DNA from: an uncultured Bacilli bacterium | Lineage (GTDB): Bacteria; Bacillota_I; Bacilli_A; RF39; UBA660 | NCBI GenBank assembly: GCA_934086955.1 | Contig: CAKOIN010000004.1 | Coordinates: 46,719 to 110,718 of the forward strand | DNA length: 64,000 bases | Direction of reading: 5' to 3' | Shown: positions 1,382 through 43,072 of the stretch, piece by piece | Numbering within the stretch: position 1 is the stretch's first letter | Layout: the number at the start of each line of letters is the position of its first letter | Notes under the pieces: model-generated | Told to the model about the DNA's origin: nothing | Database searches by the model: none | What the model saw: the letters and a program-made list of their open reading frames with translations, nothing else | Made by a program: the position numbers and the translations under genes

Positions 1382-2179
1382 TTATTCATTTACTTTTATA
1401 TTATCGTCTCCTGCACCATTATCATCAATAATATCAGGAACAACCTTCTCACATCTACTTTCAATCAAATTTCTTAAATAAGTACTACTAATATTAGTTG
1501 TTTTATCATAATTCTTATTTCTTGGAACAGGAATTAAAGTACCAGATAAATACATAGCTTGTCTTAAAAGAATATGATATTCTTCAGAAACACTAAATAT
1601 TAATGCACTAGCATCTTTTTGATTTGAACCTTTTTTAAATATATGACTACCATCTTTATCTTTAACAGCAAGTATTGTAATACCTTCTATTAACTTACCT
1701 AAAACAAGTTGACCACTATCATCTTTAGTTTGATAATATAAATCAATCTTATCATTAGGGAATATTGAGTTACCATAAGTAGTCATAGTACTAACTGGAA
1801 GTGAGAATACTGTATCACCAGTTGGAATACTTGACCAAGCTGAATCTGGCATTCTCTTCCACTCTATAATAGCTGATGCATAAAATGCACTACCAGCTGG
1901 AATATATGTATTATAATTAACATACTTTCCAATTATACTTTTCTTATCTCTAATAACATTACTATTAAGCATAGATGCTGCTACTTCTATTTCCTCTATT
2001 AAATCCTCAGTTATTTCAGTTCTAGCAGGAATAGTTTCCTTAGCAACATAAATCTTAACTTTATTAATTTCTTTACTAACCCTATATTCATAAGCAAAAT
2101 ATAGAATTAATAAACACACTATACCCAAAACAATAGTAACTACTGTTTTATTTTCAAAAATCTTTTTTAGTCCCTTCAT
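1382..2179 (-). CDS. CpaB/RcpC-like Flp-pilus assembly protein (N-terminal TM plus SAF-like domain)
   Basis: N-terminal TM helix then 'IYVAKETIPARTEITEDLIEEIEV', matching the SAF/CpaB pattern; AGGAGGT RBS; 1-nt stop/start overlap with the upstream paralog. Confidence 0.6.
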   Translation of the reverse strand: MKGLKKIFENKTVVTIVLGIVCLLILYFAYEYRVSKEINKVKIYVAKETIPARTEITEDLIEEIEVAASMLNSNVIRDKKSIIGKYVNYNTYIPAGSAFYASAIIEWKRMPDSAWSSIPTGDTVFSLPVSTMTTYGNSIFPNDKIDLYYQTKDDSGQLVLGKLIEGITILAVKDKDGSHIFKKGSNQKDASALIFSVSEEYHILLRQAMYLSGTLIPVPRNKNYDKTTNISSTYLRNLIESRCEKVVPDIIDDNGAGDDNIKVNE

Positions 2180-2985
2180 TATTGATTACCTCCTTGAATA
2201 GGATTCATCTCTAAATCTTTTTCAGATACATCAACAGTTCTCTTTTCTATTATGCTCTTAATGTATGCACTACTAATTCTAGTAGGCTTTGGATTTAAAG
2301 AATATTCAGCATTTCTTGGTACTGGAATCAAAGTAATATCTTTATAAATTGCCTTTCTTAATAATAAGTGTAATTCTTCAGGAACAGTAAACATTAAATA
2401 TGCTGGAGATTCAACCTTAGTACTCTTTTCAAATATATTATTACCATCAGAATCAATAACAGCTAAAACTCTAATACTTTCAATAAACTTAGCAACTATT
2501 AACTTATCTTGTTCACCATAACCAACATAATATAAATCAATATAATTACCTGTGAATATTGAATTACCATATGTAGTTTCAAGTGAAACTGGCAATGTTA
2601 TAACTGTATAATCATCAGGGATATCTTCAAATAAACTTGATGGAAGTTCATCCCATGTCTTAATAGTATCTTTATAAAATAAACTACCAAGTGGTATCTC
2701 TACATCTTGAGATACATACTTACCAACAATCAAAGAAGAACTTATAATAACATCTCTTGTTATCATTCCACCAGGAACTTTCTTAATACCAATATCTTTA
2801 TTAACTATTTCAGTTCTTGGCTCTAATCTTCTTACCGCATAAGGTACACTTATTGGTTCAGTAGCTTTTTTAATTCTCAAATTATATGCATAATATAGTA
2901 TCGCAAGTGATGCTAATAATGCAAAAATAGTAACCGTATTTTTATTTTTTAAAAATCTTTTCAATGCAACTTTAATATTTCCCAT
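2179..2985 (-). CDS. CpaB/RcpC-like protein, second tandem paralog
   Basis: Same architecture (TM then 'PYAVRRLEPRTEIVNKDIGIKKV'); shared C-terminal 'TLIPVPRN' motif with 1382..2179. Start moved to the internal ATG (MGNIK) preceded by GGAGGA plus a 7-nt spacer. Confidence 0.6.
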   Translation of the reverse strand: MGNIKVALKRFLKNKNTVTIFALLASLAILYYAYNLRIKKATEPISVPYAVRRLEPRTEIVNKDIGIKKVPGGMITRDVIISSSLIVGKYVSQDVEIPLGSLFYKDTIKTWDELPSSLFEDIPDDYTVITLPVSLETTYGNSIFTGNYIDLYYVGYGEQDKLIVAKFIESIRVLAVIDSDGNNIFEKSTKVESPAYLMFTVPEELHLLLRKAIYKDITLIPVPRNAEYSLNPKPTRISSAYIKSIIEKRTVDVSEKDLEMNPIQGGNQ

Positions 2986-3062
2986 TCTTTTTTCCTCCAT
3001 AGACTTTTACTACTATCTATTCTAATTAATTATAACACATCAAATAAAAATATTTCAATATA

Positions 3063-4235
3063 TTATTCATTATAAATACAATAATCATGAAATTTTTCAC
3101 ATATAAATTTTTTATTAATCGAAAGTCCAAAATTATTATTAAACTTATTTTTATTAGATATTTTATTTCTTAAATCAACAATTCTTTTAGCAGAATCATC
3201 AATCATTTTTTCATCTATTTCTCCACTCTTAACAGCTTTTTCTATTAAATCTATAACTCTTTTTGAACCATTTGGCATAATAAACATATTCACACCTGCA
3301 TTAATAGCTTTAACATATATATCCTTTTCTGAATAATTATTCGAAATAGTTCCCATATTTACCGCATCAATCATAACCACACCATCAAACTTTAATTCAT
3401 TTCTTAATATATCATTTACAATAACAGATGATAATGAAGCTGGCAAATTATCATTAGTTATTTTAGGATAACTAGAATGCCCTACCATTATTACTTCAAC
3501 ACCCTCATTAATTAATTTAATAAACGGTTGTAAATCTGTATTATAAAGTTCTTCATAAGTTTTATTAACAATAGATACCTTAGAATCATGAGTATCATCA
3601 ACAGTATCACCAATACCAGGAAAATGTTTCACAATAGATATAACATCATTATCAATAATACCTTTGTATATTTCACTAGCATTAGAAATAACAATATCTT
3701 TATCATCTGATATCATTCTTTTACCCATAGCTGATGTTTTATAATCTCCAATATCAAGTACAGGAGAAAACACAGCATTAGCTCCAATACTTGATACCTC
3801 AGTACCAATAATATTACCTATTTTATATGAAACAGATTTATCATTAAGACTTCCAATATCATAAGCATTTGGTATAAATGTAGCTTTCTTATCTTTAATA
3901 TCATATAGTCTTTGAACACTACCGCCTTCTTGATCAACAGCTACAATCATATTCTTACCACCATATTTATATAAATCTGATATAAACTTTCTTGTTCTAT
4001 CATAACTAATTAAATTAGCTCCAGTTAAAATAAAACCACCAGGATTATTCTCTTTTAAAGAAGTTATTAAATCTTCATCAACTTCATCTAAATTATAATA
4101 TACCATTAACATTTGACCTATTTTTTCTCTTAGTGACATATTATCAATAGATAATTTATTATTTTTATTATAAATAAATATTACAGTTATAAATGCTATA
4201 ATACAAATTAATATTATAATTACTTTCTTTTTCAT
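3063..4235 (-). CDS. Glycoside hydrolase family 3 beta-N-acetylhexosaminidase (NagZ-like), N-terminally membrane-anchored so probably extracytoplasmic
   Basis: GH3 signature 'KHFPGIGDTVDDTHD' and 'GFILTGAN'; TM helix at N-terminus. The ORF-track start is GTG; I used the internal ATG (MKKK) with a GGTGAAG RBS. Confidence 0.7.
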   Translation of the reverse strand: MKKKVIIILICIIAFITVIFIYNKNNKLSIDNMSLREKIGQMLMVYYNLDEVDEDLITSLKENNPGGFILTGANLISYDRTRKFISDLYKYGGKNMIVAVDQEGGSVQRLYDIKDKKATFIPNAYDIGSLNDKSVSYKIGNIIGTEVSSIGANAVFSPVLDIGDYKTSAMGKRMISDDKDIVISNASEIYKGIIDNDVISIVKHFPGIGDTVDDTHDSKVSIVNKTYEELYNTDLQPFIKLINEGVEVIMVGHSSYPKITNDNLPASLSSVIVNDILRNELKFDGVVMIDAVNMGTISNNYSEKDIYVKAINAGVNMFIMPNGSKRVIDLIEKAVKSGEIDEKMIDDSAKRIVDLRNKISNKNKFNNNFGLSINKKFICEKFHDYCIYNE

Positions 4236-4270
4236 TACTTCACCTATCATATATAACAATGTTAGCACAT

Positions 4271-4313
4271 TTCATAAAAATTAAAAAGAGATAACTTTGT
4301 TAGCTATCTCTTA
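4271..4313 (-). terminator. Putative terminator/attenuator between the C39-peptidase gene and the GH3 gene
   Basis: aagagata-(11-nt loop)-tatctctt stem, followed on minus by UUUAAUUUUUAUGAA. Confidence 0.4.
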
Positions 4314-4317
4314 TTTA

Positions 4318-5457
4318 TTATTTTAATTTATATGAAGCTCCAAACCAGATACCACATTCATTAGTAGTACTGCATTTACCATGCCAATTAGTAAGAGCTG
4401 TATTATTAAATAAGCTATCTACATTATATGTACCATTTTGTTCACCAGCCCAAGGATTACATACTTGAATCTTATCAGGAGAACCCGAAATAGCAATATA
4501 ATGATTTGGAATTCTTAATATAATTGTTTCACCTCTGTTAAGTGCATCAGTTACAGCTTTCTTTCTATCAGCTACACTACTAGCACTATTAAATAGCTGT
4601 TTTCCTTCTAATCCTAACTTATCCATCAAACTTGAATCGGTAAGTGTAGAAGTAGCAACTCTACCACAAGTAGTAGAACCTTGTACTCCTTTACATTCTT
4701 CTGACTTTTGAGCAGGTATACTACTAGTTGCATGATTTGGACCATCCCATATTGTATTTTTTACATCATTAGGAGAAATATTTTTTCCAAATGCACTTGC
4801 AACCATCGAAATTGAAGTATATCCGCATCCTTGATTATATAAGTTTGCACCATTAGCAAATCCTGTTTTACTAGAATCATAATCATTTCTATTATAACTA
4901 GTTTGATATCCACAAGTTAATGGCGGTGCCACTTTTGTTTCCTCAACAGGTTCTTCTTCATCACCATCATCAGATGGAGGTAAAGCACCTGTACCAGCAG
5001 TTCCAATTCCAGAACCAGTTTGAGAAGGTAAAACATTAGAATTAAAATCAATACCATAAACTGTTTCTAAAATACCATGCATATAAGTATCTAATTTAAT
5101 ATCAAAACTACCAGACTTTAATGTTGCCTCTCCACTTACTGTTCTAATTCTAACAGTAGCCTTAGGAGGTTCTTCATAAATATCATAAAAATCTAACTGA
5201 TAATCTTTATTATTAGTAACATTCTCAGCAAATCTACGAATAAAAACTTCAACAAACTTTTCTTGAGACATTACTACTCTACCACTAGCTCTAAAAGTTC
5301 CATAATCTACAGCATCTAACATTGATGCTTCCATTATCTCTCTACCTAAATAGAAATCTTCTTCAGTAGTAGTTGTCATTCTCTGAACTAATAGAAGGAT
5401 AACTATTACTATAATAGCAAGTACTAAGATTAGATATCCCCATATTGACTCTTTCAT
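4318..5457 (-). CDS. Membrane-anchored protein with a C-terminal papain-fold C39-like cysteine peptidase domain
   Basis: N-terminal TM; C-terminal 'NQGCGYTSISMVASAFG' (Cys box) and later 'IPNHYIAISG' (His box) resemble Peptidase_C39_2/CHAP-like domains. Confidence 0.45.
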   Translation of the reverse strand: MKESIWGYLILVLAIIVIVILLLVQRMTTTTEEDFYLGREIMEASMLDAVDYGTFRASGRVVMSQEKFVEVFIRRFAENVTNNKDYQLDFYDIYEEPPKATVRIRTVSGEATLKSGSFDIKLDTYMHGILETVYGIDFNSNVLPSQTGSGIGTAGTGALPPSDDGDEEEPVEETKVAPPLTCGYQTSYNRNDYDSSKTGFANGANLYNQGCGYTSISMVASAFGKNISPNDVKNTIWDGPNHATSSIPAQKSEECKGVQGSTTCGRVATSTLTDSSLMDKLGLEGKQLFNSASSVADRKKAVTDALNRGETIILRIPNHYIAISGSPDKIQVCNPWAGEQNGTYNVDSLFNNTALTNWHGKCSTTNECGIWFGASYKLK

Positions 5458-5460
5458 ATA

Positions 5461-8400
5461 TTAATAGTCATCTCCTTTCACTCCATCAGATTTAATAACT
5501 TGAATACCAAAGTTATTACTATTAGTTCTAATTTCATTCATAAACGAAGTAGTACATTCATAGAATCCTCCAGTTGAATCACTTATAGGTACAGCATAAC
5601 ATTGATCGTAAGAGTTATCTATATATCCACCTCTAACATTTTTATTTTTATTGTATTCTTTTATTTTCTTAATAGCATCACTATTTAATATGAAGCTATA
5701 TTGTAAGTATTTATTACCATTGCTATACATATCACTAGCAGTTGCTTCAATAGCATCTTTTATATCAGAATTTTCTAACCAGTTATTACCAATAGGTCTT
5801 TCAGCTGGGAATAGATTTCCTAATTCAACATTTCTATAAATAAATCCATATCCTTTGGAATTAGTATTTTTATCACTCCAGTGAGCACAAGCACCTTCTT
5901 CACGAATTATTGGTACTCCGTTTTTTATTTCATAACATAAGTTATTACAAGCATCAGATAAATCAACATTACCAGCATCATCAACTTGAAGTTCACAATC
6001 ATATAAATTAGTTATATTATAAACTTCATATTGACAAGTAAATTCATAATAATCATGATTTAATATACCAGATTTACTTAATTTAGAACCAACTTTAGTA
6101 TATCTATGTTTTATATCATAAGCTTTTGTTGAACCACTTTCAGTATCCATACTTACAGGGAATACATATTTATCTAAGCTAAGTGAATTACCAGAACCAG
6201 CTCCTTCCCTAACTATCCCAGTATAAGCTTCTGTAGAATATTCTTTTGGCTGCCAGAAATCAGCTTCACTAACAACTGTAAATATAGCAAAGTCATTAAT
6301 AGGAAGTTCAATTTGTTTACCGCTAACAGCATTCTTCTCACATTTAGCATTAGTGTCATAGCCACTACAAGAAACTAAATCATGTTTTCCTAATAAATTT
6401 GATGCAGATAAATCAACTTCAGAGTTGAAATCACCATTATAGCAACTAGCATAATATGAATTTCCACCCTTCTTTTCATTTTCATCATTAACACAATATT
6501 TAGTTTGTTGTTCTTGTTCTTTAATATCTTCAATTTGTGTTAAAATTTCAACTTCTTTGCCAAAAGTAGTTGTTGCACCATAATTATGATCATCATAAGT
6601 TATGTCTAAACCAATACATTCTTCTTCATTTTCACAGTTAGCAAGTTTAAGAATATAGTCCTTAGTTGTTCCACCATCTATTGCATGAGTGAATGTTCCT
6701 TGATACTTAGGTCTATGTGGAGTATACCCACTAAAGTCAACATAACTCGCACTATTGTAATATAAATTCAAATCAGTACTTCTATATAAGTTACAGTTTT
6801 CCAATTCATATATTAATTGAGTAACATTATTAACAGCAGATTTAAATGCACCCCATAATGCTGCCTCTCGATCTTTAACTTTACAAGGCTCGTCACCCGC
6901 CTCGCCTTCTACACATCCAGAAGAGGCACCAGCAGTACAACTATAATGATGACAAGTATCTTTCTTTCCATTTATAGTACATGAATAAGAATCACACTCA
7001 CTATATGATGTTCCGTTACTTTGATGATATCTACCATCAATATCACTTGGAGCCACTGGACTACTACTAATATTAAATGTTACTTTATTTGAAGTGTTTT
7101 TACTATTATTATTTATATTATAGCCATTTCCACTACCAGTAGTTGATTTTGTATATCGTGGGCTGCCACTGTAAGGCCAAGTAAATACATGATCAAAACC
7201 TTCAAGTGTATCAGAAACAGGACAGGTACTTGGACAACCGCTACCACTGTTATAACAAAATACAGTAGGAGCATGATTTAATTTAGGATTACAACTACCC
7301 CAACCTTCATTTTTATGTAGTGTCTCATATGCTTTCCAACTTGACCAAGCATCAACCATATCTTTAACAGCTTTACCATACATTTTTTGCCATGTATTAT
7401 ATCCTTGTTTAATATAGGAATCATACTTAGAAGTTGTAGTCGAATAATTATATCTTGGATTTCTGTGGTCATAATATATCTCTGAAGCACATTGTCTCTT
7501 TTGAAGAACCATTGCTGTAAGAGAATGACCATTTGTTAATTTTCTCTTATCACCAAGAACATTTTCTATTTGATATTTAAATTGCATTCCAGCATAAACT
7601 CTTGTTTTATTTGCCATATAGAATTCAATCTCTTCACGACAGAATATTCTACATATACCAACATCAACACCATATTTATCGCTGAAATCATATTGATTTC
7701 TTTCACTAACATTACAAGCATTCATAATACAGTTCATGTAAGGCTCTTCAACAGTACCTTGATCGTAAGTATCATAAATACCTTGATTAAATTCTCCATA
7801 ATTTGAACAATATCCAGGAAGTGAATTTTGTACTTCAAAATTATCACATCTCTTTATTGGACCATTGCTTTCACAAGGACATACAACTGTAGTAGTCTTT
7901 GTTGCTATTTGTTCTAAGTCTTCTTTTTTAACTGTACTACCTGGAGTTACATCCTCATCCCCAGGAGTCTTACCATTAGTTTGCCAACCATTTATATCAA
8001 AACCTACAAATTGCTGAGCAATTTCACCGCTAGCAGTTACATAGTTTTTAATAAATGCATTTGGCCCACTACCGCTTTTCCCACCTGGAACACCATATAT
8101 GTGAACAACTAAATAATTATCAGTTTGAGTTGTCTCAGTTTGAGTACACATTTGAGAATATTTAGCAGTAAATTTACAATAATTTTTATCACAACCACCA
8201 GGCAAATTCTCAGTTGGAATAACTCTACCATATTTATCAGTAACAGTAATAACAACATTACATCCATCATCTAACTCATTACAGTATTTAACTGGAACTT
8301 CAATAGGAGTATCTTTTGTTACTATAGTTGAACCAATAAACATTTTTTTGAATTCTAATTCTATTTGAACATTTTTATTCTTTTTATCAAATTCAAAGTT

Positions 8401-9594
8401 AGCATCTATATCTTTTGAAGTTCCTATAGAAACATCACCTGAAGCCTCAGTATTAGATTGAACTTGATTAATAAAATCTGCTAATTTAGAATTCTGAGGA
8501 TTTTTAGCAAAATCAACAGCACTTTGTAATAATGATGCAAAATCTTCTATATTTTTTTTCTGAGTATCATTGCTATAACAAAATACACCTTTATTTTTAC
8601 AAGCATCATTACAGCTTATTGGTGTTCCTCCCTTAAGATAATATTCCATACTTTTATCATAAACATCAGTTGCTGAGTAATAATCAAATGCAGAAGCTTC
8701 AGCACTTGATGCTCCTGAACTTACACTACCATCAGAATCTTTGATTCCACCTTGACCATCTATATATTTATGATAATATGCTACATAAGCTCTTAGGGCT
8801 GAAGAAACTGAAGCATAAGAGTAACCAGCATCACTCTTTGATATATTACCATTTGCATCAAAACTTACATTAGCAGAATTAAGTAATACAGAAGCAAGAC
8901 CACATTGATATGAGTAACTACTATCACCTGTACAATTAGATAAATCAAAGTTCTCAAGAGCTTTATAATTCATTGCACTCTTGTCTGGACCACTTCTACC
9001 TTGTTGCAAACAATATATTCTTTCACTTATATTTGCAAAATCTGGATTAGATGAATTATATTCAACAGCAGGCATTGGTCTAACACTAGTATGTTTTTCT
9101 ACTGAAGTTTTATAATAAGAAAAGGTTGCCGTACAAGTAAATGATACAGGTGCTTCTCCAAGTCTAAGTTTTTGAACTGTATAATCATCATCAACACCAG
9201 CACTCATTAAAGTTGGCATATTATTCTTTGAGTCACTAATTTGATATTGAGTACCACTTCTTAAACAAGTTGCTTGTTGCACATTAGTAACTGTATAACC
9301 ATTCTTCTTTGCTTGAGCAACTCTTAGCTCAAGCTGTTTATTAACTTCCTTCATTAATTCTGGTCTTTTTGTTCCAGATCTTCTTATAGTTGCTGGAATT
9401 GCTTTTCCATCCTTTTTACTTGTCCAATCAATACAATAACTAAGATCTGTTGTAGAAGTCTTGCCTGAATTAAATATTTTAATATTAGTAGAACTTCCAG
9501 AATCACCAGTAACTGCAAAAGTTAAATCTATATTTAAGAAAAATATATTTAGAACTATTAATAAAACTAAAATTAATTTATTATTCTTTTTCAT
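5461..9594 (-). CDS. 1377-aa secreted cysteine-rich protein of unknown function (signal peptide; no C-terminal anchor or sorting motif seen)
   Basis: Long ORF with ATG start; classic signal peptide 'MKKNNKLILVLLIVLNIFFLNIDLTFA'; dozens of Cys throughout; 4-nt ATGA overlap with the upstream gene implies coupling. Confidence 0.8.
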   Translation of the reverse strand: MKKNNKLILVLLIVLNIFFLNIDLTFAVTGDSGSSTNIKIFNSGKTSTTDLSYCIDWTSKKDGKAIPATIRRSGTKRPELMKEVNKQLELRVAQAKKNGYTVTNVQQATCLRSGTQYQISDSKNNMPTLMSAGVDDDYTVQKLRLGEAPVSFTCTATFSYYKTSVEKHTSVRPMPAVEYNSSNPDFANISERIYCLQQGRSGPDKSAMNYKALENFDLSNCTGDSSYSYQCGLASVLLNSANVSFDANGNISKSDAGYSYASVSSALRAYVAYYHKYIDGQGGIKDSDGSVSSGASSAEASAFDYYSATDVYDKSMEYYLKGGTPISCNDACKNKGVFCYSNDTQKKNIEDFASLLQSAVDFAKNPQNSKLADFINQVQSNTEASGDVSIGTSKDIDANFEFDKKNKNVQIELEFKKMFIGSTIVTKDTPIEVPVKYCNELDDGCNVVITVTDKYGRVIPTENLPGGCDKNYCKFTAKYSQMCTQTETTQTDNYLVVHIYGVPGGKSGSGPNAFIKNYVTASGEIAQQFVGFDINGWQTNGKTPGDEDVTPGSTVKKEDLEQIATKTTTVVCPCESNGPIKRCDNFEVQNSLPGYCSNYGEFNQGIYDTYDQGTVEEPYMNCIMNACNVSERNQYDFSDKYGVDVGICRIFCREEIEFYMANKTRVYAGMQFKYQIENVLGDKRKLTNGHSLTAMVLQKRQCASEIYYDHRNPRYNYSTTTSKYDSYIKQGYNTWQKMYGKAVKDMVDAWSSWKAYETLHKNEGWGSCNPKLNHAPTVFCYNSGSGCPSTCPVSDTLEGFDHVFTWPYSGSPRYTKSTTGSGNGYNINNNSKNTSNKVTFNISSSPVAPSDIDGRYHQSNGTSYSECDSYSCTINGKKDTCHHYSCTAGASSGCVEGEAGDEPCKVKDREAALWGAFKSAVNNVTQLIYELENCNLYRSTDLNLYYNSASYVDFSGYTPHRPKYQGTFTHAIDGGTTKDYILKLANCENEEECIGLDITYDDHNYGATTTFGKEVEILTQIEDIKEQEQQTKYCVNDENEKKGGNSYYASCYNGDFNSEVDLSASNLLGKHDLVSCSGYDTNAKCEKNAVSGKQIELPINDFAIFTVVSEADFWQPKEYSTEAYTGIVREGAGSGNSLSLDKYVFPVSMDTESGSTKAYDIKHRYTKVGSKLSKSGILNHDYYEFTCQYEVYNITNLYDCELQVDDAGNVDLSDACNNLCYEIKNGVPIIREEGACAHWSDKNTNSKGYGFIYRNVELGNLFPAERPIGNNWLENSDIKDAIEATASDMYSNGNKYLQYSFILNSDAIKKIKEYNKNKNVRGGYIDNSYDQCYAVPISDSTGGFYECTTSFMNEIRTNSNNFGIQVIKSDGVKGDDY

Positions 9595-10280
9595 TCGTTA
9601 TCCACCTTCTTTTTATATAAATGAATCTTTATAGCATAGAAAGCAGCAACTAATACTACAGGTATAACAGCAAAATACCAATTCTTTTTAATATAATACC
9701 AAACTTTTTGAATGAAATTCATATTTTCTAATTCATGTTGTTTTTCAGCATTTTTAACAAGCCTACCGAACTCTTTATCTGTAACATCTTTCATATCATT
9801 ACTATAAGTTTTACATATATCATCAGAAGGATTATTTATACAATACTCTCTCTGAGAAAAAATATTATATGGTGGAACTGTATATTCTAAACTTTTAAGT
9901 AAAACGCCTGGACATGCTGAATTCTTACCTCCATAAAAAGAGAAAGTATATGTTTTACTATCCATATGAACATATGAACCTAAAACATTAGTGCCATATA
10001 AATCATCATACTCTATTTCAATATCTTTATTAGTATGATTATTTCTAGCCATAACCTTTATATTTTTATTATAAGGATAAATAAATAGAAGATATGAATA
10101 TTCTTTTTCTCTAATAATATTTCCTTTTTCATCTCCAACTCCCAAATCCTCATCATAATTGATATAAACATTCTCTGCCCACTCATTCAAATCTTTATCA
10201 TTACAAGTAGCTGCATTTACTCCAAATGAAAAGACAAATAAGCAAAAAATACTAAATAAAATTTTTTTCAATTCCTTCAT
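9591..10280 (-). CDS. Small secreted protein with signal peptide and C-terminal TM anchor
   Basis: ATG with AGGTGA RBS; signal peptide '...FSFGVNAATC'; C-terminal hydrophobic 'YFAVIPVVLVAAFYAI' followed by a basic tail. Confidence 0.65.
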   Translation of the reverse strand: MKELKKILFSIFCLFVFSFGVNAATCNDKDLNEWAENVYINYDEDLGVGDEKGNIIREKEYSYLLFIYPYNKNIKVMARNNHTNKDIEIEYDDLYGTNVLGSYVHMDSKTYTFSFYGGKNSACPGVLLKSLEYTVPPYNIFSQREYCINNPSDDICKTYSNDMKDVTDKEFGRLVKNAEKQHELENMNFIQKVWYYIKKNWYFAVIPVVLVAAFYAIKIHLYKKKVDNE

Positions 10281-10359
10281 ATTTCACCTACTTTATTCTA
10301 GAAAAATTATAACATAACTAATTAAAAATGTCATTAAAATATTAAAAAACATGATACTT

Positions 10360-11013
10360 TTATATACCATGTTTAACTTTCTTAAATATCTTATTTCCAA
10401 TTAATGCAGTAATTGCACCAAATACAACAAATACAATTATATTAATACCCCAGGAAAAAAAGAAATCTTTAGCAGCATCTACAATCAATTCAAATGTAGT
10501 TTTCTTAGGAGTTTCCGGTTTAACTACAGGATCTATTTTTTTTTCAATTTGAGCTATCGCATCATCTAATATCTCCTCTGTTAATCTATAAGATAAAAAT
10601 TTAGATGAACAAAGTTTTAATTTATCTTCGTATGGTTCACACTTTTGTGTTCTAAAAAATGAATTATAATAAGGAAGAGTAATAAATATTGTATTTAAAG
10701 TGCCTGTACAATCTCCTGAAGCTTCCACATAAACAGTTAAATATTTTCCTTCTTCTTGACCACTTAATGTGACAGCATAATTATCACTACCATTACTTAT
10801 ATACACATTTTTATTAATCATTAAATACATCCCAGGAAACACATTATAAAAAGTAACAGTAAATGTTTTACTACTCATACTATAAGATGTTTCATAAGTT
10901 ATATCACTCGCTAAACCTTTTAATTCATTATATTTTGAATCAGTACACTCTGCTTTAATAGAACCTAACATCAAAAACATACTAATAAATATTATAAATA
11001 TTTTTTTCTTCAT
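10360..11013 (-). CDS. Small secreted protein with signal peptide and C-terminal TM anchor (same topology as 9591..10280)
   Basis: ATG with AGGATGGTGA RBS; signal peptide 'MLGSIKAEC'; C-terminal 'INIIVFVVFGAITALIG' then KKVKHGI. Confidence 0.65.
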   Translation of the reverse strand: MKKKIFIIFISMFLMLGSIKAECTDSKYNELKGLASDITYETSYSMSSKTFTVTFYNVFPGMYLMINKNVYISNGSDNYAVTLSGQEEGKYLTVYVEASGDCTGTLNTIFITLPYYNSFFRTQKCEPYEDKLKLCSSKFLSYRLTEEILDDAIAQIEKKIDPVVKPETPKKTTFELIVDAAKDFFFSWGINIIVFVVFGAITALIGNKIFKKVKHGI

Positions 11014-12620
11014 TATTCACCATCCTTAATAAGTACTGCATGAACAACCATTCTTCTATTTCCTCCACCAGCACAAGTAGATAATGTTAATATTTTATCT
11101 CCGTATTCAACTGTATCTTTTGTTTTAAAACCACTTCTTTTTCTAATCATTTTAACAAAAGCATCGAAGTCTTCTTTACTATCAAAATTATCAACTAAAT
11201 AATCAGTAGTATAATCCACTCTATAAGCAGCAAATATTTTAAACTTATATGATTTAGCCGGAGTATCTAATGAAATAATCATATTTTCACTATTTTTTCT
11301 AAAGCTACTATTTAGAACTCTATGTAATGTCCCAAACATAGTTCCATTTAACATACTATGACCATAAACAATACTATTATCATCAAGTTCACTCATATTA
11401 TTTCTATAATCTAAATATATCCATCCCATACTAGTTTTCTTTTTATAGAAATCTCTTTTTAAATAATAACTATTATCAGAATGTTGTACTAAAGGATAAG
11501 ATATATTAGTACCATTAACAACTAAATAACCTACTGTTTCATTATTAATTTTTTTTAATTTAGAAAATACTTTATCAAAAGTATATTTATCTTTAACTTG
11601 TTTATCATTTAATTTCTGATCAAGTATAACTCCATCATTAGTTAATTCATCTTCGCTAACATTATCTGGTAAAGCAAAAGAACTATTTATTATTTCTTGA
11701 TTAACTTCATCTATACTCATCTTTTCTATATATTCATATGATTTATATATAAGTAAACAAACAACACTTACATATACAGCCATTATAGATATAAGTTTTA
11801 AATTATTAAATGTTAATTGTTTAAACAAATTATTTCTTAAAAAATCATTTGAATATAATATTCTAAATTCACATGTATAATCTTCTTTACATTTCTTATT
11901 TAATTCTTTTAACCATGCAAAATTATTTACTATAAAGTTACCTTTATCTTTTCCTTGATGTAAAAACACTATTATATTTCTTGCTTCATCATTTTTAACT
12001 AAATCTATTACATTACTTATTAATTCCTTAGAAAATACATAAATATGTATTGATTTTAAATTATAATTAATTCTTAAGAATTCTTTTATATCATCAAGTA
12101 AACCAGGATATTCTTCTCTTATTTCTAACATCTTTCTATAATACAATGTTTCATAATCAAAAGAATCCTGTGATATCATAAATCTATCACTTACTTTATT
12201 ACGATTATATAAATTAACTACAACACCTTTATCATTAAATTTATCTTTAATAAAAGATGGCATAAAATAACAATCTATTTGTTTTAAAGTATTAACTGTT
12301 AAAAATAATTCATAATCATTTAAACCAATAGTGGATGGAATATCTAATTTTAAATATTTCATCTTAAGTCTTATCATCATAATAACTACATATTTAAATG
12401 TAACTAATCTTCTTACATTCATAGTATCTAAATTATTATAATTTTCTTTTATTTTATTAATTATCTTTTCATAGTTATTACTGTAATATCTCATAGAATA
12501 ATATAAAGTATTATCATTAAACTCATTTTTATTAACAAATTTAGATAATGATTCATCAATAGACTTAAAATCATATGTAAGTACATTATCTTTAATTGAA
12601 ATAATTAAATACTCTTTCAT
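11013..12620 (-). CDS. srtB: Class B sortase with a roughly 300-aa N-terminal extension and internal TM segment
   Basis: Catalytic motifs 'SIVYGHSM' (His) and 'ILTLSTCAGGGNRRMVVHAVL' (TLSTC Cys plus Arg), which is class-B-like; AGGAGA RBS. Confidence 0.7.
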   Translation of the reverse strand: MKEYLIISIKDNVLTYDFKSIDESLSKFVNKNEFNDNTLYYSMRYYSNNYEKIINKIKENYNNLDTMNVRRLVTFKYVVIMMIRLKMKYLKLDIPSTIGLNDYELFLTVNTLKQIDCYFMPSFIKDKFNDKGVVVNLYNRNKVSDRFMISQDSFDYETLYYRKMLEIREEYPGLLDDIKEFLRINYNLKSIHIYVFSKELISNVIDLVKNDEARNIIVFLHQGKDKGNFIVNNFAWLKELNKKCKEDYTCEFRILYSNDFLRNNLFKQLTFNNLKLISIMAVYVSVVCLLIYKSYEYIEKMSIDEVNQEIINSSFALPDNVSEDELTNDGVILDQKLNDKQVKDKYTFDKVFSKLKKINNETVGYLVVNGTNISYPLVQHSDNSYYLKRDFYKKKTSMGWIYLDYRNNMSELDDNSIVYGHSMLNGTMFGTLHRVLNSSFRKNSENMIISLDTPAKSYKFKIFAAYRVDYTTDYLVDNFDSKEDFDAFVKMIRKRSGFKTKDTVEYGDKILTLSTCAGGGNRRMVVHAVLIKDGE

Positions 12621-12689
12621 ATCCTATTCTCCTATTAAAATAATTTTATCACAAAAACAATTAAAAAAAAATAGATTAAATATATAAAT

Positions 12690-13808
12690 TTAACCTATTC
12701 TAAATGCTGGTGAAACTCCACCTAACCCATTTGGCTCAGTACCTAGCCAACCACCATGACTATATACTAAATAAAAAGTATCATTTAAACAAGAAAAAGT
12801 TGAACGAAGCCACCACCAAGTAGCAACAGTTCCTTTTTTCTTTATTGCACCACTATAACTATCTGTAGTAACTCCTAAATTTTGATAATAATCTAACTGT
12901 CTTGTTAAATTACTTGTAGTATCATAATCTATTGTACTTGTTGTTCCTTGTTCCCATACCTCTACTGTACTAAGTAAATATAATTTATCTATTGATACAA
13001 AATTATCTGTATCTTCACTTCCATGACCAGAAACCACTCTAGTATCTATTATTACACTCTTTAAATCATTTGGTAGTGCATTATATATATCGTTATTTAC
13101 AAATAAATACAAGTTTGATGCAGGCCATCCATCCTTATTCCACCCTTGATAATAATTTTTCCCTTTATAAATACCACCAGGATTCATAATATGAGTAGTT
13201 ATTATATCTGCAAACTCAATAACAAATCCACAAGCTGTTTGTGAGAAACCTTCTGTTGAACATTCACTTGGTGTTGATACATTTGCTATTCTTACTGTAT
13301 GTGTACCATAAGTTCCTAAATCTATCTCTTTTGTATCTCCTACATTATAACCTTCAATATCAGAATTTCTAACATTATCTACTATTGTTTCCCATGAATC
13401 GTTTTTAAATGATTTTTTTAATTTTTGACACTCACCTTCAGTAATCTTGTCAATTGTTAATTCACTTAAATTTTTAAATTTTCCACTTAAACAATATGTA
13501 TCATTACTTACTTGAAAATCTTTAATATTGCCTTTGCTGTCTAATTTAATATTGTAATCTAAATTATTTGAGTCTAAATCCAACTTATTACTTGAATTAG
13601 ATATATTGTTAACTTTATTACCCTTCATATTTTCAGATATATATTTTTTAGATACTTCTTTATATATAGTTTTAGCTTCTGTTAAAAACACATCTTTCTT
13701 AGCTTGATTAAACATATTAAGTACATTAGGAAGAGCTATAATAACAAGTAAAGCAAGTATTGCTATAACAGCTAATAATTCTACAAGAGTAAAACCATTT
13801 TTATTCAT
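12690..13808 (-). CDS. Type IV pilin/pseudopilin-like protein (class III signal peptide) with a 340-aa globular C-terminal region
   Basis: N-terminus 'MNKNGFTLVELLAVIAILALLVIIALP' is the prepilin-peptidase cleavage/N-methylation motif (G/F-T-L-V-E); GAGGTG RBS. Confidence 0.75.
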   Translation of the reverse strand: MNKNGFTLVELLAVIAILALLVIIALPNVLNMFNQAKKDVFLTEAKTIYKEVSKKYISENMKGNKVNNISNSSNKLDLDSNNLDYNIKLDSKGNIKDFQVSNDTYCLSGKFKNLSELTIDKITEGECQKLKKSFKNDSWETIVDNVRNSDIEGYNVGDTKEIDLGTYGTHTVRIANVSTPSECSTEGFSQTACGFVIEFADIITTHIMNPGGIYKGKNYYQGWNKDGWPASNLYLFVNNDIYNALPNDLKSVIIDTRVVSGHGSEDTDNFVSIDKLYLLSTVEVWEQGTTSTIDYDTTSNLTRQLDYYQNLGVTTDSYSGAIKKKGTVATWWWLRSTFSCLNDTFYLVYSHGGWLGTEPNGLGGVSPAFRIG

Positions 13809-13860: not shown

Positions 13861-13891
13861 ACAATAAAAAAGAAATCAATTAAGATTTCTA
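13861..13891 (-). terminator. Terminator after the 13889..14404 membrane-protein gene, separating it from the pilin/sortase operon
   Basis: agaaatc-ttaatt-gatttct overlapping the TAG stop, followed on minus by UUUUUUAUU. Confidence 0.5.
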
Positions 13892-14404
13892 TTCAATATC
13901 ATACTTTGATACTAATTTATTAAATACTTTATAATCAACCATTTTAAGTTCACTACTCATAGCTTCAATACCTTTTCCATCTTTTATATATATAAATAAC
14001 GGAGCTGAATTTATTTGATCCTTTATTTCAGGAAATCTCTTTCTTAAAGTTTCAATATATTTATCATCCTTACTATTAGTAACATCCCAATATATTATTT
14101 TATCAGTAAGATTCTTGTTTTCTATTTCTTTATATAATCTACTTTCTATATTATTTATATCAGAAGAACCAGTATAACTTACATAAAGTATTACTTCACT
14201 ACCAACTTCACTTAAAGCATAACTAAAATCATCTGTATTTATTTGACTTATTTTTTGATTATTAAATACACTTTCATTAATTTTACTGTTTTTATAATTC
14301 AGATAAAAATTTCTAGCATACAATATAACTACCATAATAAGTACTGATACTACTATAACAATAAAATAATTACGACTTGGTATTTCTTTTCTCTTTTTTT
14401 CCAT
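13889..14404 (-). CDS. Membrane-anchored hypothetical protein
   Basis: Start moved to the internal ATG (MEKKRK), which has a GGAGAG RBS; the first ATG has none. TM 'YFIVIVVSVLIMVVILY'. Confidence 0.55.
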   Translation of the reverse strand: MEKKRKEIPSRNYFIVIVVSVLIMVVILYARNFYLNYKNSKINESVFNNQKISQINTDDFSYALSEVGSEVILYVSYTGSSDINNIESRLYKEIENKNLTDKIIYWDVTNSKDDKYIETLRKRFPEIKDQINSAPLFIYIKDGKGIEAMSSELKMVDYKVFNKLVSKYDIE

Positions 14405-14549
14405 ATAAGTCTCTCCATTCTTATAAATCAATTTTAACATAAAATAATTTATATTTCAAATGCTTTACATAAATTTTAACATATTAATATAAAGTATGAT
14501 TTTAGTATTATATTTATTAAATAATATAGAAAAAAATATACTTTTATAT

Positions 14550-15179: not shown

Positions 15180-15342
15180 AATAAATTTCTTCTTTCTTAT
15201 TAATATTTATCTTTTTAAACAATTCATTATATTCATTTACTTCTTGAGCTTTTTTTATAGAACAATAATTACTAATAAGTTTTTTACATATACCTTTATC
15301 TTTTTTTAATTCTTGTATTTTTTCTTTAATCTTACTATTCAT
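15175..15342 (-). CDS. Possible 55-aa small ORF (MNSKIKEKIQELKKDKGICKKLISNYCSIKKAQEVNEYNELFKKININKKEEIYY) coupled to the upstream 865-aa gene
   Basis: ATG 6 nt after AGGTGG, which lies inside the end of the 865-aa gene; open to TAA just before the bidirectional terminator. Below the ORF-track size cutoff. Confidence 0.25.
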   Translation of the reverse strand: MNSKIKEKIQELKKDKGICKKLISNYCSIKKAQEVNEYNELFKKININKKEEIYY

Positions 15343-15345
15343 AAT

Positions 15346-17943
15346 TTACCACCTACCCTCAACATAAACAACTTTTAAATTATTAGTTTTAGCAATATTG
15401 ATTATATCATCAGTAAGTTTACCTACTACTACAATGAACTCAGCTTTCATATTAACTTTATTTTTATTATCTTTATTAACCTTAATACAAGTTCCATTCT
15501 TAGAATCACTTAATCTTATACTATATTCATCACTTAATTTATTATAACAATAACAATTTAATGATAATAACGAAACATTAACATACTTATAATTAATACC
15601 ATCATCACTCTCTGAACATAATACTTTAAAGTCTTGACCTACTACTGTATAAATATCAACACCATTCTTATTTTCATATTTAACCATATCAGGACTATCT
15701 TTATAAAGATCAATAATATCATCAATACCAACTAAATTATTATTAATAATATTTCTCATATATTTTTTAATTTTATTAAAGAAATTAATACTAAACATAA
15801 CATTTCTCTTATATTTATCATTCATTAAATTATTAATATATTCAAATACTATATCAATAGATAACTTATCAAACATAACATTTAATAATGATAAAAATAA
15901 TACTTCTTCTTCACTAAATACTTTTGAACCATCTATTTCAAAAGATTCAATTGAATCTATATCAAATGTATCAATAATTTGTTTTATAGTTGATACCTCA
16001 AGAAAACCATGATTACCTTGAATATCATATGATTTATTAAATAAATAACTACATAATAAATTAGAATAAATACTTATATCACTATCTTTAAGCATAGATA
16101 GTTCACTAACAAATTTCTTAATTAAAGTTAATTCATAACTTGGTAATTGACCTCTTCTAGTAATATTATTAAAGTTACCAAATGAAGATAAAACATCAAC
16201 CAAAGCAGTTATTTCCTCATCACTTAAATCACAATCAACAACATCACTTAATAACTCTTTATAATAAGTAAAGTTTTCAACTGCTCTAAATAATGATTCC
16301 TTAGATTCACCATATATATCAAATATAATTTCTAAATAAAACTTAAATAATTTTAAACTACTCTCATTCTTTACAATAAATAATAAAGTACTAAAATTAG
16401 TAAAATTATAACTATTAAAATCACTCAGTAAATTAAATGGTATAAAAGATAATCTATCATCAAATATCTCAAGTGAAAATGTATCATATAATGATTTATT
16501 CAAATTAACAGTTCTCTTATATGCATTAGTTAATATTTCATTTAATAATTTACTAGTAACTTTCCTTGTTCTATCATTTTCTTTACCCTTATAAAACATT
16601 GACATACCAATAAATAAACTAACTTTATCAAAAGAATTATTTAACATTATTTTCTTATTAAATAATATTTTAAATAAATCAAAAACAGCATTATAATCCT
16701 TAGTAAAATCATAAGAATTTATATTACTTAAATATTCATCAAATATTTTATTTATAACCTTATAATATTTATTATATATTTCTTCATCATCATAATAAGC
16801 TTTAAATAAATTTAAACATCTAAAATCACAATCAATAACTATCTTTTCTTTATCTCTACTACTAGTATTATCATTATATACTGGAGCTATATAAGGTAAA
16901 ACATAATTAACATCAATATTTATTAATGGTATCATTTGATCAATACTAAGACTTTGAATAGATTTAATAAGTCTCTTAGTATATTGATAAGTTATATCAT
17001 TACTTTTAGGATCAAATCTAAATAATTTACCTTTAGCATTAAATAATCCTTTATCAACCATAATATTAACTATATCTTTAACAGATTTATTTTCTATATC
17101 AGATATAACTTCATATATAATTTCTATACTTTTATCTTCTTCTCTTTTAAAAGATGAAATATTAATATATTTTAATAAATCAATATCATATTTTAATAGT
17201 TCAACAACAGTTTGACTACTTATATAATTTATCATATATGGATATCTACTTATATATTCACATTTTATATCAATAGAAGCATCATTTAATAAAGAATTAT
17301 CTTCTTTAATCTTTTTTATTTCTTCATCAATATATTTCTTTTTAGCATCTCCATTTATATACATTATATAATCTTTATTAAGTGAATATTTATCTTGTAC
17401 ATCTTGAGGAGCATACTTAATTAATGAAGCCTCAGCTTTAACAATATATTCCCACTGTCTACTAGTAAATTTGCTAGATACTTCTTTAATTAATTCTTCT
17501 GTTTCTTTAGGATTAGATTTAAATAATATCGCTATAACTGTTCTTAAATCATCCATATATAATTTTAAAATATCTTCTTTTTGTTGAAAATATATTTTTA
17601 AATAACTATTATATTCTTCTTCATCCATATTCATAGAAGTAGCATTCATGAAAAATTTATTATCTTTCATCCAATCAGAAACAAGAGACTTTCTTGCTTC
17701 AACACTACCACTTCTAAACATAGAAAGATTACTATTAATTCTCGATTTTTGAAAATCAACAGGTAAAATTCTTATTAAAGATGGATATTTAAAAAATAAG
17801 AAACTAAGTACAATTTCATTATTGGTAAATTCTTTGTTATCTAAATAAGCTTGTTCAACTTCTTTATCACTCTTTCCTTCTAAGCTTTTTACAAATGCAT
17901 TAGCTCTTTTTTGAAGTTGTCTCATTTTCATTTCTTTAAACAT
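15346..17943 (-). CDS. 865-aa hypothetical protein, Asn/Lys/Ile-rich, with no signal peptide or recognisable motif
   Basis: Long ORF, ATG start with AGAGGT RBS. Confidence 0.7.
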   Translation of the reverse strand: MFKEMKMRQLQKRANAFVKSLEGKSDKEVEQAYLDNKEFTNNEIVLSFLFFKYPSLIRILPVDFQKSRINSNLSMFRSGSVEARKSLVSDWMKDNKFFMNATSMNMDEEEYNSYLKIYFQQKEDILKLYMDDLRTVIAILFKSNPKETEELIKEVSSKFTSRQWEYIVKAEASLIKYAPQDVQDKYSLNKDYIMYINGDAKKKYIDEEIKKIKEDNSLLNDASIDIKCEYISRYPYMINYISSQTVVELLKYDIDLLKYINISSFKREEDKSIEIIYEVISDIENKSVKDIVNIMVDKGLFNAKGKLFRFDPKSNDITYQYTKRLIKSIQSLSIDQMIPLINIDVNYVLPYIAPVYNDNTSSRDKEKIVIDCDFRCLNLFKAYYDDEEIYNKYYKVINKIFDEYLSNINSYDFTKDYNAVFDLFKILFNKKIMLNNSFDKVSLFIGMSMFYKGKENDRTRKVTSKLLNEILTNAYKRTVNLNKSLYDTFSLEIFDDRLSFIPFNLLSDFNSYNFTNFSTLLFIVKNESSLKLFKFYLEIIFDIYGESKESLFRAVENFTYYKELLSDVVDCDLSDEEITALVDVLSSFGNFNNITRRGQLPSYELTLIKKFVSELSMLKDSDISIYSNLLCSYLFNKSYDIQGNHGFLEVSTIKQIIDTFDIDSIESFEIDGSKVFSEEEVLFLSLLNVMFDKLSIDIVFEYINNLMNDKYKRNVMFSINFFNKIKKYMRNIINNNLVGIDDIIDLYKDSPDMVKYENKNGVDIYTVVGQDFKVLCSESDDGINYKYVNVSLLSLNCYCYNKLSDEYSIRLSDSKNGTCIKVNKDNKNKVNMKAEFIVVVGKLTDDIINIAKTNNLKVVYVEGRW

Positions 17944-21345: not shown

Positions 21346-21372
21346 AATGAAAAAGAAGTATCTCTACTTCTA
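21346..21372 (-). terminator. Terminator immediately after the 2443-aa LRR gene
   Basis: gaagta-tctc-tacttc hairpin abutting the TAG stop, followed on minus by UUUUUCAUU. Confidence 0.4.
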
Positions 21373-28707: not shown

Positions 28708-29253
28708 CTACTCCTTATTCTTAATCTTCTTTACATCTTTTATTATATCTCTTATTTCATAAAAATAAATATACCCTAATGGAATAATTATAATAAGAAC
28801 AAATCCTATTTTAGTATCCATTATCTTTTCAATTAAACTAAAAAACTTAAATTTATAAATATATTTACCTAATATTTCTTCTTCATAAACAGCTGGATCT
28901 TCACTTATATTTTGTATACCTTTTGTATAAAATATATTTCTTCCATTTTCAAGTTTTATACCAACTATTTTATGAGTAACTATTTTTCCTTTTAAATTAC
29001 CACTAGATCCCTTAAAAGTAATAATATCTCCTACTTTATATGAATCAGTACTTCTTTCTTGTACAAGAATTACATCACCTTTATGTAAAACAGGTTCCAT
29101 ACTTTTAGTAATAATAGAATATGTTCTAAAACCAAAAACACTAGGATTATTTGGAAATACTTTTTGATATACAGTAAATATAGCAAATAATATCAATAAT
29201 ACTAATATAATTATTTTTAAAATATCAAATATTTTTTTTATTACCTTTTTCAT
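28708..29253 (-). CDS. sipW: Signal peptidase I, ER/archaeal type (SipW-like)
   Basis: 'IITKSMEPVLHKGDVILV' has the S-M-E-P Ser box with a His; N-terminal TM and a C-terminal TM; adjacent to 'YAWF'-type substrates. Confidence 0.7.
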   Translation of the reverse strand: MKKVIKKIFDILKIIILVLLILFAIFTVYQKVFPNNPSVFGFRTYSIITKSMEPVLHKGDVILVQERSTDSYKVGDIITFKGSSGNLKGKIVTHKIVGIKLENGRNIFYTKGIQNISEDPAVYEEEILGKYIYKFKFFSLIEKIMDTKIGFVLIIIIPLGYIYFYEIRDIIKDVKKIKNKE

Positions 29254-29269
29254 ATGAATCCTTTCTAAA

Positions 29270-29845: not shown

Positions 29846-29853
29846 GCTTCACC

Positions 29854-43070: not shown

Positions 43071-43072
43071 TA

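Follow-up and report, generated by a model that had tools for sequence, protein, structure and literature searches.

A conserved gut-bacterial gene cluster combining a class B sortase that has an LRR-like domain with a putative Tad-like type IV filament machine

Among the described systems, the Tad/Flp machines (type IVc; Aggregatibacter tad, Caulobacter cpa, and Bifidobacterium breve tad) offer the nearest comparison for the gene cluster analyzed in this work, which lies at the beginning of a 64,000-nucleotide stretch of the contig CAKOIN010000004.1 from an uncultured Bacilli bacterium. This whole stretch is hereafter called the window, and positions refer to it unless a related locus is named. 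The cluster, encoded on the minus strand, shares with the Tad/Flp systems a FlaI/CpaF-clade ATPase followed by two polytopic proteins of ~260-300 amino acids (aa), CpaB-like SAF proteins, very small subunit candidates in 1-3 tandem copies, and larger subunits with a hydrophobic N-terminus that are TadE/F-like by position. It differs from them in that no T2SSF, TadZ, Flp signature, or TadV/CpaA is detectable, and in its leader, MKEATG/ELN instead of G/XXXXEY. Beyond Tad/Flp, it adds a sortase, a DUF6568 protein, two anchored proteins (a217 and a229), and an orphan secreted protein of more than 1000 aa (the giant). We favor, with moderate confidence, the interpretation of the cluster as a divergent Tad-like (type IVc/archaeal-type) type IV filament machine equipped with a dedicated sortase module. 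The points that we regard as firm are the synteny, the FlaI/CpaF-clade ATPase, the CpaB-like proteins, the class B sortase with a leucine-rich-repeat (LRR)-like domain, and the accessory status of a pilin-like gene inserted among the others.

Other described systems resemble parts of this cluster. CpaF, PilC, DUF5411, and an internalin-like protein have been predicted to make up a "membrane machinery" of Roseburia, Ruminococcus, and Eubacterium (Miller, Stern and Burstein 2022, PMC9523054); it has in common with our cluster a DUF5411 protein beside a CpaF-type ATPase and a platform protein, and it is likewise uncharacterised and gut-associated. The Clostridia variant differs in having, besides several very small proteins, a PilC-like protein of 434 aa and an internalin-like protein of 478 aa, and no sortase, giant, or a217/a229 appears in its gene list. 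The Tad-like cluster of TANB77 (PMC11680825) is also divergent and conserved across an uncultured gut Firmicutes order, and it also encodes a large "minor pilin" with additional domains, TadE/PilV-like in the first quarter of its sequence; it differs in possessing CpaB, TadZ, CpaE, a 640-aa TadA, a fused 693-aa TadC/B, and seven pilin-like proteins, it was described as TANB77-restricted, and no sortase or giant was reported. A canonical tad operon with TadV is found in Bulleidia (PMC12786226), and in a survey of orders related to Mycoplasmatales srtA/B have been reported as missing in RFN20 and ML615J-28, alone of the peptidoglycan genes shared with RF39 (PMC10868615); this would be in keeping with an RF39-like origin of the window, without proving it. 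A first-pass annotation, made from the sequence of the window, had proposed that the association of a pilin-like protein with a sortase was not a described pilus type; in the literature, which was incompletely covered, there is no report of a sortase in a Tad-like locus, nor of an LRR-sortase fusion. The occurrence of a sortase beside type-IV-filament parts thus appears to be undescribed, and the mechanism proposed below is one that we infer.

The evidence that carries this interpretation is the gene order in related genomes. Related loci were fetched with the DUF5411 profile, one genome per species, which gave 486 relatives, and 77 loci were kept; the gene order was read from a tblastn table and from an iterated gene-order table based on hidden Markov models (HMM). 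All the 77 loci belong to uncultured gut metagenome-assembled genomes assigned to Bacilli, Mycoplasmatota, Tenericutes, Erysipelotrichaceae, or Clostridium sp. CAG, and the contig of a single relative already displayed the matching gene order plus the rest of the cluster. A near-universal core, met with in dozens of species, is formed by an a229-type protein, a giant of ~1000-1560 aa, the DUF5411 protein, one or two CpaB-like proteins, the ATPase, protein B (~299 aa), protein C (~263 aa), one to three small pilin-like proteins, one or two ~170-aa proteins, a 314-aa protein, and one to four copies of a small protein with two transmembrane (TM) segments. In 46 loci there is also a second module, made of DUF6568, the sortase, and a217. 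In the sortase-bearing relatives, the order is DUF6568, sortase, a217, a229, giant, DUF5411, CpaB, ATPase, the two membrane proteins, the small pilin-like proteins, the 314-aa protein, and the small two-TM protein, although the placement of the sortase module varies, being either before or after the a229-giant pair. The sortase and a217 occur together in 37 of 39 loci, and all 32 loci that have the DUF6568 gene also have the sortase. The giant lies upstream of the DUF5411 gene in nearly all loci, and the a229-giant-DUF5411 triad is duplicated in L009, L010, L018, L024, L038, L042, and L078. The closest relative is L003 (Mycoplasmatota bacterium SUG767), whose cluster genes are mostly 97-99% identical to those of the window (88% for the GH3 gene described below and 94% for the giant), and the two are effectively one species.

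In the window, the six minus-strand open reading frames (ORFs) from which the first-pass annotation had built an operon are all present (12690-13808, 11013-12620, 10360-11013, 9591-10280, 5461-9594, and 4318-5457), and their spacing is as tight as it had been described: 69 nt separate the pilin-like gene from the sortase gene, the latter overlaps a217 by 1 nt, a gap of 79 nt follows between a217 and a229, a229 overlaps the giant gene by 4 nt, and 3 nt lie between the giant and the DUF5411 gene. The limits of the unit are a different matter. The terminator-like hairpin at 4286-4312 (minus strand), 3' of the DUF5411 gene, exists, with an 11-bp stem and a T-run, but the idea that it closes the unit does not hold, since the synteny runs past it; in the ~15-kb region two terminator-like hairpins were found versus 2.4 expected by chance in shuffled sequence. 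Nor is position 13808 borne out as the start, the synteny reaching the upstream DUF6568 gene at 13889-14440. The unit had been drawn too small, because the conserved synteny extends downstream to position 1 and beyond, and upstream to DUF6568. Five more minus-strand genes are found downstream, coding for a GH3 protein, two CpaB-like proteins, a secretion ATPase, and a membrane protein truncated at the edge of the window. Judging from the gene order, the six ORFs make up the front half of a cluster of roughly 15 genes that is conserved among uncultured bacteria of the gut. Lack of conservation of this neighborhood, which had been raised as a possible objection to a combined system, is not what we observed, the stretch from the sortase to the DUF5411 gene being kept in related genomes.

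The premise that a PilB-type motor was missing proved wrong, since an ATPase of the PilB/TadA class is encoded ~3 kb downstream on the same strand, at 160-1359 (PF00437, 4e-27, 95.3 bits against a cutoff of 24.9). Its nearest PDB relatives are FlaI (2.5e-18), CpaF (3.9e-18), and VirB11 (2.7e-15). In NCBIfam it is matched by VirB11, TadA, TrbB, and FlaI models, of which those for TadA, VirB11, and FlaI all score it below their equivalog cutoffs, so that we assign it to the FlaI/CpaF(TadA)/VirB11 clade and to no subfamily within it; across the loci it is 66-98% identical. It is preceded by two CpaB/RcpC-like SAF-domain proteins, the first at 2179-3000 (RcpC, 6.5e-5, and TIGR03177, 1.7e-6, both below cutoff) and the second at 1382-2179 (TIGR03177, 8.8e-12; RcpC, 1.2e-5; SAF, 2e-3), and the CpaB-like protein is conserved in about 60 loci. 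Directly after the ATPase come the polytopic proteins B (299 aa) and C (263 aa), which are Tad-like in size, position, and TM pattern alone. The window holds the first 49 codons of the former (1-148), which match the N-terminus of the L003 gene at 15298-16197 and differ from it at few residues. Proteins B and C and the 314-aa protein are all extremely conserved across the loci, with a mean column identity of 81% within the protein B family and 71% within that of the 314-aa protein.

The remaining part of the cluster was analyzed in the relatives. The family of 75-105 aa, in one to three tandem copies, has the near-invariant start MKEATGELNMTV[IV]T.IA[IV]AA, and the hydrophobic N-terminal helix, the size, and the tandem copies make these proteins pilin-like. 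The ~170-aa family starts with MRE[SA]IGG.WLF and the DUF5411 protein with MKES.WGY; both thus have M[KR]E[SA]xxG ahead of a hydrophobic helix, an arrangement reminiscent of a short leader of class III type. The cluster ends with a gene for a small two-TM protein with a Cys-containing tail (L003, 19045-19392), which occurs in one to four tandem copies. No additional conserved polytopic gene, which might have been a candidate of the TadV/CpaA type, was found in the related loci.

The class B sortase assigned to 11013-12620, which contains the TLSTC motif, is well supported (535 aa; TIGR03064, 168.8 bits, cutoff 153.75), and so is the long N-terminal extension attributed to it, which turns out to be an LRR-like domain spanning residues 1-257. 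The protein is laid out as this N-domain, a TM segment inside a long helix (258-312), a linker, and a catalytic domain (~345-532), the last being the part matched by solved SrtB structures; the catalytic residues His421, Cys516, and Arg523 are invariant in the family. Residues 1-320 have no known match in Pfam, NCBIfam, or PDB-level searches of the single sequence. In an AlphaFold2 model built with 30 homologues, the N-domain is composed of repeated strand-helix units resembling LRRs (predicted local distance difference test values of 85-93), and is followed by the TM-bearing long helix, a disordered linker, and the catalytic domain, whose sortase fold is confirmed in the model of the 535-aa protein. 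The N-terminal 330 residues have 296 homologues, every full-length one being fused to a sortase domain, and among the matches listed the more distant relatives of the N-domain are 51-65% identical, the domain being more conserved than the secreted proteins of the cluster. We infer a cytoplasmic location for it, because the catalytic domain must face outside and there is no N-terminal signal. Compared with the known class B sortases (the SrtB enzymes of Staphylococcus aureus and Bacillus anthracis in haem-uptake anchoring, SrtB of Clostridium perfringens, Spy0129 of Streptococcus pyogenes, and SrtB of the Streptococcus pneumoniae type II pilus), this one adds a ~257-aa, putatively cytoplasmic, LRR-like domain before the TM segment.

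The first gene of the sortase module (13889-14440, minus strand; PF20207, 80.1 bits) encodes a DUF6568/PedC-like membrane-anchored protein. The family name implies a thioredoxin-like protein, yet the family is Cys-poor and strictly tied to the LRR-sortase: a CxxC motif is absent from all 32 members, most of which have no Cys at all. We rejected on this basis the idea that it might act as a disulfide oxidoreductase for the Cys-rich proteins of the cluster.

The third element of the module is a217 (10360-11013, minus strand), made of a signal peptide, a Cys-containing ectodomain, a variable linker, an amphipathic juxtamembrane segment, a TM segment, and the tail K.RKIKHGI-COOH. The description of a217 and of its 229-aa paralogue a229 (9591-10280, minus strand) as small secreted proteins with a C-terminal anchor is correct; both have an N-terminal signal-like sequence, a C-terminal hydrophobic segment, and a basic tail, and they fall into one HMM family with 128 members in 71 loci, within which the a217 subfamily always comes after the sortase and a229 always precedes the giant gene. 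The best-conserved stretch of a217 is its extreme C-terminus, ...K.RKIKHGI, which is near-invariant and is kept as [YF]RK[VI]KH[GK][IL] even in loci where the protein is ~30% identical elsewhere. A plain stop-transfer tail would not usually be so well conserved, which suggests that this one has a cytoplasmic partner, for which the LRR-like domain of the sortase is an obvious candidate.

The absence of an obvious sorting motif is borne out for the window as a whole: a scan of all its ORFs by regular expressions and hydropathy revealed no LPXTG, NPxTx, or similar motif near any C-terminus, and only a217 and a229 show the architecture of a secreted protein with a C-terminal anchor. Ahead of the a217 TM segment there are only a charged, variable linker and, at a distance of ~12 residues from the segment, a weakly conserved T-[FIL]-[LIF]-[DE]. 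We consider a217 a candidate substrate of the sortase by architecture and adjacency, not by motif; in this it would depart from the known SrtB substrates, since it has no NPxTx, (S/P)PxTG, or xVPTG-type motif and its context is type IV filament-like. A pilus polymerized by the sortase finds no support, since the window encodes no LPXTG-type protein, a217 and a229 have no canonical motif, and the enzyme belongs to class B, not to class C.

These data bear on the model behind the first-pass annotation, a hybrid pilus in which the sortase encoded next to the GFTLVELL pilin would handle or polymerize it and the downstream secreted proteins would provide additional subunits. The pilin-like gene (12690-13808, minus strand) is indeed what it was taken for. 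Its 372-aa product begins MNKNGFTLVELL, with the predicted prepilin cleavage site MNKNG/FTLVELLAVIAILALLV (G at -1, E at +5, and a hydrophobic helix next), and the class III signal is recognized by both PF07963 N_methyl (27.8 bits, cutoff 21.2) and TIGR02532 (27 bits, cutoff 16.3), while the head is a DUF6273 domain (52.5 bits, cutoff 23.5). Modular pilins of this kind, with a canonical prepilin N-terminus and a grafted C-terminal module, are exemplified by PilB and PilC of Streptococcus sanguinis (PMC8179133, PMC9934059), the concept having been established for S. sanguinis PilB (PMC8179133), and the DUF5411 proteins, with their conserved N-module and variable heads, are a further parallel. 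Unlike PilB and PilC, no assembly machinery has been identified for the 372-aa protein, and DUF6273 otherwise appears in the literature on phages and diversity-generating retroelements (DGRs), as a variable domain for receptor binding in phage proteins and DGR targets. No DGR template-like repeat was found in the window, and DGR targeting of this pilin was rejected for this reason.

The hybrid pilus might be suggested by the 69-nt distance between the two genes, by the pilin/DUF6273 genes that adjoin the sortase in L003, L006, and L008 too, and by the short GFTLxE pilins that L051, L055, and L063 have next to DUF5411 or gene C. However, about 40 sortase-bearing loci have no pilin, and the protein, ending with ...GVSPAFRIG, has neither a C-terminal TM segment nor a sorting signal. 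The gene has promoter-like hexamers of its own (13858-13830), and there are neither LPXTG pilins nor an E-box. An iterated family search recovered 10 members in 8 loci, with full-length DUF6273 pilins beside the cluster only in L003, L006 (two copies), and L037, and fragments in L004 and L008; in L001 the pilin slot between DUF6568 and the sortase is filled by an AbiE (AbiEii-type) toxin-antitoxin pair (1692-3135), which makes this position a variable insertion site. A weak AT-rich hairpin with a T-run precedes the gene. Compared with its L003 orthologue (1680-2771), residues 1-60 are identical and overall identity is 62%, versus 97-99% for the neighbors, and the divergence peaks in the head, over the last ~50 residues before the conserved GVSPAFRIG end, a pattern that suggests diversifying selection or allele exchange. 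Given its restriction to near relatives, its replacement by AbiE, its own promoter-like site, and its 62% identity, the GFTLVELL/DUF6273 protein is best read as a strain-variable modular pilin in a hot spot, not as a core part. The link between sortase and type IV systems had thus been drawn through the least conserved gene of the set, one confined to the closest relatives. What survives of the hybrid interpretation is that the sortase is conserved beside type-IV-filament parts, the pilin gene as the link being lost; the model itself is, on the evidence of synteny, largely refuted, and we judge it very improbable.

The short canonical pilins of this family measure 123-204 aa, and in the three distant loci they lie directly after DUF5411 or protein C (L051, 14786-15172; L055, 12151-14065; L063, 10416-11027); there the MKEATG-type small proteins are missing. 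In view of these few loci, some functional link of the cluster to type IV pilins may exist.

Type IVa pili offer, in their PilY1/minor-pilin tip complexes, an example of a filament machine combined with large exposed domains. In this locus, comparable roles might be sought in the giant and in the DUF5411 protein. The former (5461-9594, minus strand) is, as first described, a 1377-aa Cys-rich secreted protein with a signal-like N-terminus and 47 Cys. It has no match in Pfam, NCBIfam, or PDB, either as a single sequence or as a 35-member profile, and no internal repeats in a self-BLAST; a word-based search returned 6 close relatives only, and the family counts only 162 representative clusters in 1.84 billion proteins, almost all of 1000-1600 aa, with conserved Cys and sequence patches along the whole length. 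From these patterns we take the giant to be an orphan family tied to this system. The ORF annotated as a C39-like peptidase (4318-5457, minus strand) may keep that assignment for its head (Peptidase_C39_2, borderline at 24.9 bits against a cutoff of 24), within a protein that belongs to DUF5411 (159.8 bits). Residues 1-132 are modeled as a helix and a small sheet, a disordered linker follows, and the papain/C39-like head covers residues ~205-375. The modeled N-domain, with a 47-residue N-terminal helix (hydrophobic in its first half), two short helices, and a three-stranded sheet, is compatible with the "lollipop" of a pilin, and it is 60-70% identical across distant relatives. A homologue search gave 114 clusters, whose C-terminal parts are C39-like, Flg_new, dockerin, EF-hand, or none. 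The interchangeable minor-pilin "Tips" of the Myxococcus Kil Tad pilus (PMC12075869) are a parallel to the a229-giant-DUF5411 triads, present in one or two copies. There is no sequence relation to either Kil Tad or PilY1 proteins, and a tip role would here be suggested by gene order and duplication.

The same proteins might also be seen as cargo, which leads to the idea of a new monoderm secretion or contact-dependent delivery system, similar to type II or type IV secretion systems, in which a short pseudopilus would push the giant and the DUF5411 heads through the wall. The top NCBIfam match of the ATPase is VirB11 (113 bits, below cutoff), and the last gene family of the cluster is weakly similar to the VirB2-type pilins of type IV secretion systems (PF18895, E=4e-4, below cutoff); moreover, the DUF5411 heads are enzyme- or adhesin-like and interchangeable, and the giants, secreted and conserved, differ from typical repeat adhesins in being non-repetitive. 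These observations are to be set against the absence of VirB4, VirD4, VirB6, and a relaxase, the equal nearness of the ATPase to FlaI and CpaF, and the association of CpaB-like proteins with Tad systems. On balance we consider a delivery system unlikely, although a pilus and a pseudopilus cannot be told apart by these data.

In the Tad-like machine that we favor, the host would be a wall-bearing, reduced-genome member of the gut Bacilli, and the stretch 4318-13808 would represent the envelope-facing half of the apparatus. The ATPase and the two membrane proteins would be the motor and the platform; the small MKEATGELNMTV (MKEATG) protein of 101 aa would be the major filament subunit, and the ~170-aa protein and DUF5411 would serve as minor, priming, or tip subunits, the latter carrying interchangeable heads, papain/C39-like in this window. 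The giant, together with the translationally coupled and anchored a229, might be a tip-associated adhesin or cargo, as in PilY1 or the Tad "Tip" complexes. The sortase would sit in the membrane, with its cytoplasmic LRR-like domain docking on the machine and/or on the KHGI tail of a217, while its outer catalytic domain would cleave a217 near the juxtamembrane segment and join the ectodomain to peptidoglycan, a step that we regard as possible though somewhat doubtful; the anchored a217 would then fix the wall-spanning part of the apparatus. The GFTLVELL/DUF6273 pilin would be separate, possibly displayed by this or by another type IV machine. A bolder version of this scheme, which we put forward only as a speculation with little chance of being right in full, would make the LRR-sortase a dedicated part of an undescribed class of type IV filament machines and would have it select its substrate in a novel manner: instead of an LPXTG-type motif being read outside the cell, its LRR-like domain would bind the motor or the KHGI tail of a217, and the enzyme would covalently anchor to peptidoglycan a wall-spanning collar, a monoderm counterpart of the secretin/alignment complex, with the giant as tip or cargo.

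Several observations weigh against a Tad-like machine. For proteins B and C and for the 314-aa protein, neither Pfam nor NCBIfam gave a match (E<=1), T2SSF, TadB/TadC, and TadZ included, and PDB profile searches were null for B (25-member profile) and for the 314-aa protein; owing to these null searches, it is position that lends the three proteins their Tad names. The putative major subunit has no Flp G/XXXXEY motif and no EY at +5/+6; structure searches with the DUF5411 N-domain return no pilins, and an hhalign comparison of this domain with the ~170-aa family aligns 7 residues only. Among the window ORFs scanned and in the 20-kb loci, no gene for an A24 prepilin peptidase was found, the consensus of the a217/a229 family has no fixed sortase motif, and the roles given above to the giant and a229 are wholly conjectural. 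Finally, most of the more distant loci (L062-L079) have no sortase module within their 10-kb flanks, which marks the module as accessory, and in this genome a terminator-like hairpin and a promoter-like site part the two halves of the cluster.

The last two points might also indicate two independent neighbors, namely a SrtB-substrate anchoring operon (DUF6568, sortase, a217, and perhaps a229 and the giant) and a Tad-like operon starting from the CpaB-like genes. The hairpin (4312-4286) and the promoter-like site (3058-3029, before CpaB-like protein 1) lie between the halves, as does, in this genome, the GH3 gene (3063-4268, minus strand; PF00933, 4.6e-65), coding for a protein of the NagZ-like beta-N-acetylhexosaminidase family with an N-terminal TM segment. 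Besides, the position of the module relative to the a229-giant pair varies, for example in L023, L026, and L034. The GH3 gene is found in the cluster only in L003 and L005 among the related loci, and we interpret it as a lineage-specific insertion. Against this, the two halves stay adjacent in loci where the proteins are only 30-50% identical; furthermore, DUF5411, reported elsewhere inside CpaF/PilC operons, sits on the sortase side of the hairpin, the a229-giant-DUF5411 triad lies beside the ATPase genes in nearly every locus, with or without the sortase, and all the full-length homologues found for the N-domain of the sortase have a sortase domain. For these reasons, two unrelated systems appear improbable to us.

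The window is AT-rich (G+C about 20-33%) and chromosomal-looking. Among its genes are those for MetRS, a PcrA/UvrD helicase, ABC transporters, and YfhO, and no tRNA genes or integrase signal were found in it; a mobile-element or phage origin was rejected on these grounds. Some other loci in it deserve mention. The region 28708-39719 (minus strand) has two signal-peptidase-like genes of the Peptidase_S26 family (28708-29253 and 36224-36778), both coding for a TM segment at the C-terminus and surrounded by unannotated secreted proteins, and a second prepilin-type N_methyl protein, fused to DUF285, is encoded at 34886-36133; a 2443-aa BspA-LRR/CBM2 protein lies at 21370-28701. It is possible that the S26 regions are signal-peptidase-dependent surface fibre clusters. 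A 763-aa protein at 48657-50948 (minus strand) consists mostly of ~28 tandem 36-nt (12-aa) repeats, and a collagen triple-helix repeat protein (9-nt repeats) at 42396-44140 (plus strand) is directly followed by a gene for a glycosyltransferase-2 with TPR.

A remaining question concerns what such a cluster might mean for the bacteria that harbor it. The passage of type IV filaments through the wall of single-membrane bacteria, and their retention in it, are poorly understood, and, if our interpretation is true, a cluster pairing a Tad-like motor with a sortase would be a concrete and testable answer to the problem of wall crossing. Likewise, a large and conserved cytoplasmic protein-binding domain would take the biology of sortases past motif-driven anchoring. 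The DUF5411 relatives are distributed over 486 species-representative genomes, mostly of uncultured, small-genome gut lineages, in which the strain-variable heads of the DUF6273 pilin and of the DUF5411 proteins (their C-terminal domains) and the orphan proteins of more than 1000 aa are likely determinants of the binding targets.

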